DNA of 64,000 nucleotides, taken from assembly GCA_012270995.1 (NCBI GenBank), contig JAAXHG010000122.1, positions 8,841 to 72,840 on the forward strand, read 5' to 3'. The stretch is from Vicinamibacteraceae bacterium (GTDB lineage Bacteria; Acidobacteriota; Thermoanaerobaculia; Multivoradales; Multivoraceae). The translations under genes were made by a program, and so were the position numbers. Below, one piece after another: positions 40,671-41,420 of the stretch. How positions within the stretch are numbered: the first letter of the stretch is position 1; each line of letters begins with the position of its first letter. Under the pieces are notes generated by a model. It was not told the origin of the DNA. It did not search any database and saw only the letters and a program-made list of their open reading frames with translations.

Positions 40671-41420
40671 CTACCTCGGAGGAAGCTCCCGAGATCGGCT
40701 AGTCGCCGTGTCGTCCACTCTCTCTCTCTCTCTCTCTCTCTCTCTCTCTCTCTCTGGGAATCCAGGCAGGCGCGTTCGGCCCGTCAGAAGCTGCTGCATC
40801 GTGGCGAGCTTGATTGCACGCGCTTTGACGAGAAGACGTTCCAACGCCGCGATCTCGGCGTCCACGTCCGTGAGCACAGCCGTAATGGCTCGCTGCTCGG
40901 CAACGGGAGGAAGGGCGAACTCGAGCCGCTCCACCACAGCCCAGTCTGCACGGGGCATGTGGGTGCCGTACGTGACAGCTGCTCCATTGAAGAACGCGGC
41001 GGTCTGAACCAATGCCATCAAGTACGCACTCGTCGTCACCCTCGGCTGCGCGGGAACGAGCGGCCAGATCTCCGTCGTACACATGCCGGACCAGTCGGCC
41101 CGCCAGTACTTGCGGAGATATGGCCTCAGTCGCCCAAACAACACGTCGCCTGCAAAGAACCGGTAGCCCGTCGCGTTCGACTCGGAGGCGTGTGACCAAC
41201 CCTGCAGACGGCCGGTTCCCCCTGAATGGATATGTTCAAGCGCAACGCACCGCGTAGCGGCTGGGAGTCCGGTCGAATGGACCTTGTCGTTTCTGATCGC
41301 GGCGATCTCGCCGAAGCGAACACGCCGCCATGTGCCGGAGTATCCGGGCAGCCTTGTCGCGCCGGTGATGAGCTTCTCGGCCCGGCTCATGGTCGAGGTG
41401 TCGTCGTGGCTCAGCGCCAC
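40671..41420 (-). CDS. hsdS: Type I R-M specificity subunit, proximal half (TRD1 + central conserved region), ending just after a dinucleotide repeat
   Basis: 249 aa with 'FALPPVAEQRAITAVLTDVDAEIAALERLLVKARAIKLATMQQLLTGRTRLPGF'. This is followed by (ER)6 encoded by the repeat and a 15-aa out-of-frame tail. The start overlaps the hsdM stop. Confidence 0.8.
   Translation of the reverse strand: MALSHDDTSTMSRAEKLITGATRLPGYSGTWRRVRFGEIAAIRNDKVHSTGLPAATRCVALEHIHSGGTGRLQGWSHASESNATGYRFFAGDVLFGRLRPYLRKYWRADWSGMCTTEIWPLVPAQPRVTTSAYLMALVQTAAFFNGAAVTYGTHMPRADWAVVERLEFALPPVAEQRAITAVLTDVDAEIAALERLLVKARAIKLATMQQLLTGRTRLPGFPERERERERERERVDDTATSRSRELPPR
40718..40755. repeat. Perfect (CT)19 dinucleotide microsatellite inside hsdS
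   Basis: Counted directly: 38 nt of uninterrupted CT from 40718 to 40755, which is (AG)19 on the coding strand. Confidence 0.97.

Follow-up and report, generated by a model that had tools for sequence, protein, structure and literature searches.

Within the 64-kb stretch of DNA analyzed here (referred to as the window), the specificity gene hsdS of a type I R-M island carries a long dinucleotide microsatellite between the parts that encode its two TRDs. This arrangement raises the question of whether the repeat works as a switch of HsdS, is the trace of a switch that worked in the past, or never was a switch at all.

A perfect AG tract sets the reading frame of hsdS

A sequence-only reading of the window had reported a perfect (CT)19 at positions 40718 to 40755, at the boundary between TRD1 and TRD2 of hsdS, and this description was borne out. 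The tract consists of 38 nt of uninterrupted CT, corresponding to (AG)19 on the coding minus strand, and occupies the junction between the hsdS central conserved region and TRD2, after RLPGF-P and before the conserved Trp that opens TRD2. For a 20-nt CT pattern, 0 matches were expected from 100 dinucleotide-preserving shuffles. The second-longest dinucleotide run in the 64-kb window has 4 units, and no homopolymer of 7 nt or longer was found in these 64 kb.

On the TRD1 side of the junction, the proximal ORF (40671 to 41390, minus strand) covers TRD1 and the central conserved helix and continues with (ER)6 and an out-of-frame tail of 15 codons. It ends in ...MQQLLTGRTRLPGFP(ER)6VDDTATSRSRELPPR* (with the junction written out, ...MQQLLTGRTRLPGF-P-(ER)6-VDDTATSRSRELPPR*), with the stop codon at 40671 to 40673, and is 239 aa long from ATG 41390 or 249 aa long from the alternative GTG 41420. 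We consider ATG 41390 the likelier start of hsdS, since it lies 20 nt past the hsdM stop, as it does in the intact reference locus L008, which comes from an Acidimicrobiia MAG and encodes an HsdM of 847 aa, an HsdS of 404 aa, an HsdR of 1051 aa, and YgjP. The distal half (40082 to 40717, minus strand), comprising TRD2 and the distal conserved region, is in the +1 frame. From 40783 this frame runs uninterrupted across the repeat as far as the stop codon at 40082 to 40084 and reads (RE)n-WTTRRLADLGSFLRGSGVSRAETQ... (also given as (RE)n-WTTRRLADLGSFLRGSGV...); its earliest in-frame start codon is GTG 40666, from which 194 aa would be encoded. The earlier account of the two frames, with a stop 15 codons past the repeat after (ER)6 and a distal half that is open back through the tract, was thus accurate.

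We then simulated the effect of the unit number on the gene, using 12 to 26 units from the GTG start and 8 to 33 units from the ATG start. Among these, the two hsdS halves are fused whenever n mod 3 = 2 (8, 11, 14, 17, 20, 23, and so on), and n = 14, 17, 20, or 23 gives a two-TRD HsdS of 432 to 438 aa from the ATG. The n = 20 fusion has 446 aa from GTG 41420 or 436 aa from ATG 41390, in agreement with the earlier calculation that (CT)20 or (CT)17 would join the halves into a protein of about 445 aa. All other counts truncate HsdS after TRD1, with the tail ...VDDTATSRSRELPPR when n mod 3 = 1 and ...ESGRHGD when n mod 3 = 0. In characterized systems, a half-HsdS homodimerizes and recognizes a different, symmetric target.

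The fused product resembles type I S subunits

The fused HsdS contains two Methylase_S stretches (Pfam PF01420), each followed by a conserved helical region, and its sequence matches in the PDB are type I S subunits (1YF2, 7VRU, 3OKG, 5YBB, and 2Y7C). It is collinear with eight full-length homologues, including both ...MQQLLTG.xRL motifs, and is 52.7% identical to protein P0014 from end to end, with no internal gaps or stops. The proximal ORF is 53% identical to TRD1 of the L008 HsdS. These features, together with the remnants of hsdM and hsdR that adjoin the gene, place it among the two-TRD hsdS genes.

At the junction itself, the pattern in 119 HsdS homologues is RLPGF-x-x-x-W, and none of the 119 has a dipeptide repeat there. 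In the window, P-(ER)n-E takes the place of the three linker residues, and the conserved Glu codon before the TRD2 Trp is the final GAG of the tract. Most homologues have exactly 3 residues at this junction, to which in-frame alleles would add 7 to 13. We considered that an (ER)n insert must break the fold, given a fixed three-residue linker, and rejected this because homologue P0043 has a linker of 17 residues at the same hsdS junction. It is thus not evident that a long linker would conflict with the HsdS fold, and, as far as these alignments tell, a long (ER)n linker is plausibly tolerated by it.

Tract length differs between assemblies of the same strain

Length heterogeneity had been proposed as a check on the repeat, and at the assembly level this check favors slippage, with 19 or 21 units in otherwise near-identical DNA. 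Among metagenome assemblies of the same strain, 19 units are found in four contigs, with this length in the window, L083 (ERZ27298222), and L089 (ERZ23495058), and 21 units are found in a 44.7-kb contig of ERZ27298220 (L082, L084, L090); the polymorphism thus consists of one 21-unit contig versus four 19-unit contigs, and some of the assemblies may share read sets. The four public contigs that encode the 19-unit allele are 50 to 200 kb long, and an identical 239-aa gene is called on all of them. Outside the tract, L082 differs from the window by 1 mismatch in 20,585 nt. Because the 21-unit contig is otherwise near-identical to the window, these assembly-level observations support the notion that the tract slips in nature. 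Strain-to-strain variation in tract length is taken as a hallmark of phase variation (Atack et al. 2019, PMC7383803), and the assemblies reveal length variation for this hsdS within the same strain.

The 19- and 21-unit alleles are both out of frame and both truncating. No in-frame (ON) allele was found among these assemblies, so that only one of the two states of a switch is represented. An exact look-up of the predicted HsdS alleles with 16 to 25 units returned none of them, including the 19-unit allele that is known from four contigs.

A miscount by the assembler as the source of the difference between 19 and 21 units is unlikely because the tract, at 38 to 42 nt, is shorter than the k of 141 of the k141_ contigs. 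A more radical possibility is that the tract as a whole is an assembly artifact, in which an assembler joined bacterial sequence through a host (AG)n microsatellite. One contig, L001 (ERZ27298221), is exactly such a chimera, and Logan contigs built with k = 31 break within the tract. For the window, however, this explanation is scarcely credible: in five or more contigs (45 to 149 kb), drawn from three or more assemblies, bacterial sequence flanks the tract to the left and right, the flanks are successive segments of a single gene with order and register as expected, and the tract is short enough for single k-mers and reads to span it. Two Logan contigs that begin inside the tract and show 13 to 14 units (L092 and L093) were considered as further alleles and rejected, as they reflect the k = 31 limit instead.

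The chimeric metagenome contig L001 (positions 1 to 2156; ena:ERZ27298221:k141_161811) has a bacterial part that corresponds to window positions 41600 to 40718. An 845-nt flank identical to the window hsdS is followed by (AG)10-GG-(AG)10 and then by low-GC DNA (~1.27 kb) that carries part of an Ion_trans exon and is eukaryote-like, probably host animal DNA. The protein from this contig, P0004, has an AT-rich tail and is not a true HsdS. Because L001 joins a bacterial flank to low-GC, eukaryote-like DNA, the sample is host-associated; the bacterium itself appears to be host-associated and Acidobacteriota-like. The MrpD protein encoded in the window shares 95% identity with one of a MAG labeled “Acidobacteriota bacterium.” From the earlier description of an environmental high-GC bacterium, the high GC content (68%) stands, while “environmental” was imprecise. 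The AG tract also constitutes an assembly hazard, in that such repeats lead to bacterium-host chimeric contigs in host-associated metagenomes.

The enzyme genes of the island are destroyed

On the minus strand, the order of genes is hsdM remnant, hsdS, accessory gene, hsdR remnant, and ygjP, the same order as in L008. The sequence-only reading had been right to describe hsdM and hsdR as dead-looking, and their decay goes further than it described. The hsdM remnant (41411 to 42549, minus strand), delimited with Pfam and with tblastn using the L008 HsdM, keeps the equivalents of aa 25 to 108, ~345 to 407, and 614 to 845 of the 847-aa homologue, with one frame change; its 5' end and its SAM-binding and NPPF catalytic core are gone. 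Its Pfam matches are HsdM_N positions 16 to 115 and N6_Mtase positions 195 to 279 only, with N6_Mtase profile positions 1 to 194 and homologue aa 408 to 613 missing. The best-preserved piece of the remnant is the C-terminal extension (window 41417 to 42115, minus strand). Such an extension, of ~230 to 300 aa and without a Pfam match, is present in HsdM of this type I family (L008 7409 to 9952); a typical HsdM has ~500 aa, versus 847 aa in the intact L008 homologue.

In the hsdR remnant (37456 to 39316, minus strand; Pfam and tblastn with the 1051-aa L008 HsdR), the HSDR_N nuclease domain runs straight into the final 45 positions of domain 3 and then the C-terminal region. A deletion has removed ~400 aa of the helicase motor, and the reading frame shifts close to the 3' end; in tblastn, the remnant matches aa 18 to 274 and 640 to 982 of the L008 HsdR and then aa 1000 to 1051 in another frame. 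Between hsdS and hsdR lie fragments of a SLFN/AlbA_2, HATPase_c_4, and winged HTH gene in three frames (39339 to 40089, minus strand), and in related type I loci intact counterparts of this AlbA_2/HTH gene take that position. The HTH gene remnant includes a tandem repeat (39523 to 39600; unit GTCGGGGTAGTG) that shows periods of 12, 21, and 33 nt and reads on the coding strand as a Thr/Pro-rich linker (...APITAPTTPIATPTTTPTTPATTPTS...).

At the opposite end of the island, a remnant of tesB (acyl-CoA thioesterase II; 42549 to 42764, minus strand) was recognized by a partial Pfam match to Acyl_CoA_thio and by blastn to relatives, in which intact tesB encodes 292 aa. The remnant retains 216 of 879 nt, has lost its own 5' end, and abuts the truncated 5' end of hsdM. 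The final gene of the island, a ygjP-like metallopeptidase gene of 251 aa (36708 to 37463, minus strand), is apparently intact (Pfam YgjP-like, E = 7.9e-60) and 60% identical to its L008 counterpart. Only this gene and hsdS, repeat phase aside, look whole. The hsdM and hsdR deletions are identical, at ~100% identity, in contigs from several samples, and because they are common to these contigs, we regard them as real and fixed.

A phase-variable hsdS is expected to have an active cognate HsdM, which the 64-kb window does not contain. None of the window's open frames contains an NPP[FYW], DPxCGSG (motif I), or Walker A motif, no second hsdM or hsdR is present in it, and an Rfam scan of the window gave no relevant match. 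With both alleles out of frame, hsdM without motifs I and IV, and hsdR without its motor, no evidence that the ON-OFF or specificity switch proposed earlier as a candidate is a working one emerged.

This leaves the idea that the switch works in trans, with the hsdS products joining HsdM and HsdR of a same-family type I system elsewhere, which the sequence-only reading had raised as another M/R pair served by hsdS. Such a role would be in keeping with an hsdS that escaped all deletions and has stops only from the repeat frame, with a tract that is still perfect and variable, and with half-HsdS proteins that are known to be functional (PMC7383803). Several findings argue against it. Apart from the remnants, neither hsdM nor hsdR is present in the window, and an N6-methyltransferase motif is absent from it. 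The 5' end of hsdM, where the promoter of an hsdM-hsdS operon would have been, is deleted and fused to the 5'-less tesB fragment, and a promoter/terminator scan of 39900 to 43400, a weak test, found no sigma-70-like promoter and no other signal of relevance. Moreover, only out-of-frame alleles were seen, and syntenic relatives lack an R-M system at this site. Nor is the intactness of hsdS evidence of selection, since a 1.3-kb gene would by our estimate escape ~six deletions over the ~8.5 kb of the original island by chance with a probability of ~0.3 to 0.4, or about a third. We consider a switch acting in trans to be rather improbable. Also very doubtful in our view is the reading of hsdS as an orphan whose AG tract toggles full and half HsdS in the service of a type I methyltransferase elsewhere in the genome. 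Between the two possibilities named earlier, another M/R pair and a fossil switch, we favor the fossil.

The island occupies a variable chromosomal site

By blastn of L095 to L099 and gene maps of L095 to L103, the lineage-specific type I R-M island extends over ~6 kb (36581 to 42549). Four related lineages, some represented by contigs of megabase size, have a flanking DSD1/Ala-racemase-type gene that is 87 to 94% identical to that of the window, and their gene order is Ala_racemase, LDcluster4, tesB, variable cargo, and FAD oxidase. The interval between tesB and the FAD oxidase gene (window 36581 to 42764, compared with L095 to L103) constitutes a hotspot whose cargo varies across this Acidobacteriota-like clade; the relatives carry there a PhdYeFM/PIN toxin-antitoxin pair, DUF6883/DUF4926 genes, or a set of three unknown genes of 167 to 553 aa. 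An R-M system was never found at the tesB-FAD oxidase site in the four related lineages. As judged from these comparisons, the island is evidently a horizontal, lineage-specific acquisition at a variable hotspot that was then eroded by several deletions.

In the comparison with relatives that had been suggested earlier, the repeat is absent from syntenic relatives, but so is the whole island, and relatives without the island cannot speak to the conservation of the repeat. A close orthologous island was found neither among genome contigs searched with HsdS (best match, 61%) nor among metagenome contigs searched with the HsdR C terminus (best match, 66%). Protein searches with HsdS gave matches of 47 to 61%, aside from the chimeric self-match P0004. 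A close donor lineage is thus absent from these collections.

Other parts of the window also differ from the relatives or carry repeats. A second nonsyntenic block at ~44800 to 48800 (compared with L095 8667 to 9832) contains window ORFs of 655 aa (45353 to 47320) and 355 aa (47227 to 48294) on the minus strand, and the relatives have a single unannotated gene of ~382 aa there. An intergenic element of ~100 to 140 nt is found at 54320 to 54460 and 60830 to 60970 (minus-strand orientation) and also in relatives (L095 9832 to 9984), with a weaker partial copy near 44706 to 44795. It contains inverted repeats (AGCTTGCGC...GCGCAAGCT and GCCAAAC..GTTTGGC), matches nothing in Rfam, and has the look of a palindromic element of the REP or MITE kind. 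At 44805 to 44851, upstream of the DSD1/Ala-racemase-type gene, a 24-nt unit (TGGCAACCGAAAATGTCCCACTTC) occurs in two direct copies with 95% identity and is unusually AT-rich for the genome.

The tract resembles known hsdS repeat switches

Repeats within hsdS are without exception located between two TRDs, and 7.8% of the hsdS genes in REBASE have repeats at this location, including AG[n] tracts, the length threshold for dinucleotide repeats being at least 5 units (Atack et al. 2019, PMC7383803). The tract of the window shares these properties. Its unit is not a multiple of 3, it exceeds 5 dinucleotide units inside an ORF, and it lies between TRD1 and TRD2, where a frameshift leaves TRD1 and the coiled coil. 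The position that had been put forward for a candidate switch therefore matches that of published hsdS repeat switches (PMC7383803).

The closest parallels are found in pathogens. In NgoAV of Neisseria gonorrhoeae, a poly-G tract switches HsdS between full-length and truncated forms (PMC7383803). Both in NgoAV and in the window, the repeat found between TRD1 and TRD2 has a unit length not divisible by 3, and tract length toggles between a full-length HsdS and a TRD1-only HsdS with the central coiled coil. NgoAV has a mononucleotide tract, an active HsdM, and a demonstrated change in methylation specificity, whereas the window has a dinucleotide tract, a destroyed cognate hsdM and hsdR, and only out-of-frame alleles among those observed. 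The AG[n] tracts in hsdS genes of the Mycoplasmataceae (PMC7383803) share with the window the AG unit and the position in the middle of hsdS. Their bearers, however, are low-GC minimal-genome pathogens, often with multiple hsdS genes and with ~8 units in the quoted examples, in contrast to the single hsdS, the 19 to 21 units, and the pseudogenized island of a 68% GC, Acidobacteriota-like, host-associated bacterium. In Haemophilus parasuis, a GCAA[7-29] repeat likewise lies between the TRDs of hsdS and varies in length (PMC7383803). It differs in its unit, and the systems are annotated as intact.

Repeat number between the TRDs also alters HsdS in EcoR124I and EcoR124II (type IC), where an in-frame 12-nt unit encoding TAEL in the coiled-coil helix sets the spacer length of the recognition sequence. 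We considered a spacer ruler of the EcoR124 kind and rejected it, as the unit of the window has 2 nt and the tract follows the helix and the RLPGF turn. Unlike TAEL, the AG tract has a frameshifting unit that lies past the helix, beyond RLPGF, and for this reason it would be a switch that truncates HsdS rather than a ruler.

A neutral origin of the tract is unlikely

To judge how exceptional the tract is, we used 160 related type I loci (2.07 Mb in total, the sum of 1.24 Mb and 0.83 Mb), in which the longest dinucleotide run has 6 units, of GC or CG. Homologous junctions from 41 loci offer only a GAG-TGG seed, with a longest AG/GA run of at most 5 nt. Conserved junction codons that predispose to AG expansion were considered and, given this limit in the 41 homologous junctions, set aside as a weak explanation.

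These data bear on the alternative that the tract is a neutral microsatellite born after the death of the island, when a GAG-containing seed slipped in unconstrained DNA, and that it never was a switch. Such an origin would suit an island that is decaying in its entirety, two observed alleles (19 and 21 units) that are both out of frame, in-frame alleles that insert 7 to 13 residues where most homologues have 3, and a repeat that is present in no relative. It is less easily reconciled with the scarcity of such runs, which elsewhere reach at most 4 units in the window and 6 units in the 2.07 Mb of related loci, or with a local seed of at most 5 nt in homologues. A random site in the 6-kb island would fall within ~30 nt of the junction with an estimated probability of ~0.005, and the tract sits where functional hsdS repeats occur (PMC7383803). 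In addition, hsdS is, besides ygjP, the gene without a deletion or stop, although the estimated chance of that is ~0.3 to 0.4. Because a rare tract, a short seed, and a position that matches the published hsdS-repeat rule come together, a tract of 19 to 21 units precisely between the TRDs is not likely to have arisen by neutral chance, and we regard birth after the death of the island as an unlikely history. Selection for switching in a working system would explain the tract better.

A probable fossil of a specificity switch

Our preferred explanation, which we hold to be more likely than not, is that the tract is the fossil of a formerly working hsdS switch of the type known from NgoAV and from the Mycoplasma AG[n] tracts. 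In such a switch, slipped-strand mispairing would change the number of AG units. One phase in three (n mod 3 = 2) would yield the full two-TRD HsdS, and the other two phases would yield a half-HsdS of TRD1 and the coiled coil, which by analogy may recognize a different, symmetric target. The tract would have expanded while the R-M system was still active. The island, presumably acquired horizontally, would have been eroded later, with loss of the hsdM core and 5' end and of the hsdR motor. Tract length would still be changing, probably without methylation or restriction output from the locus at present, since the cognate methyltransferase and nuclease are destroyed and the hsdM 5' end is gone.

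The mechanism is not new. What is unusual is its bearer, an uncultivated, apparently animal-associated, Acidobacteriota-like bacterium with 68% GC, and the fact that the locus is dead. The island is a documented example of a contingency-type repeat whose length differs between natural samples despite the decay of the R-M island around it, as well as of a defense island whose acquisition at a variable hotspot of the chromosome was followed by erosion. If the tract were functional, repeat-driven specificity switching would extend beyond Neisseria, Mycoplasma, and Haemophilus to an uncultivated high-GC symbiont, and a specificity gene would have outlived its own enzyme genes. If, further, hsdS were an orphan serving a methyltransferase elsewhere in the genome, the locus would represent working epigenetic phase variation in a high-GC symbiont, with the specificity module uncoupled from its enzyme.
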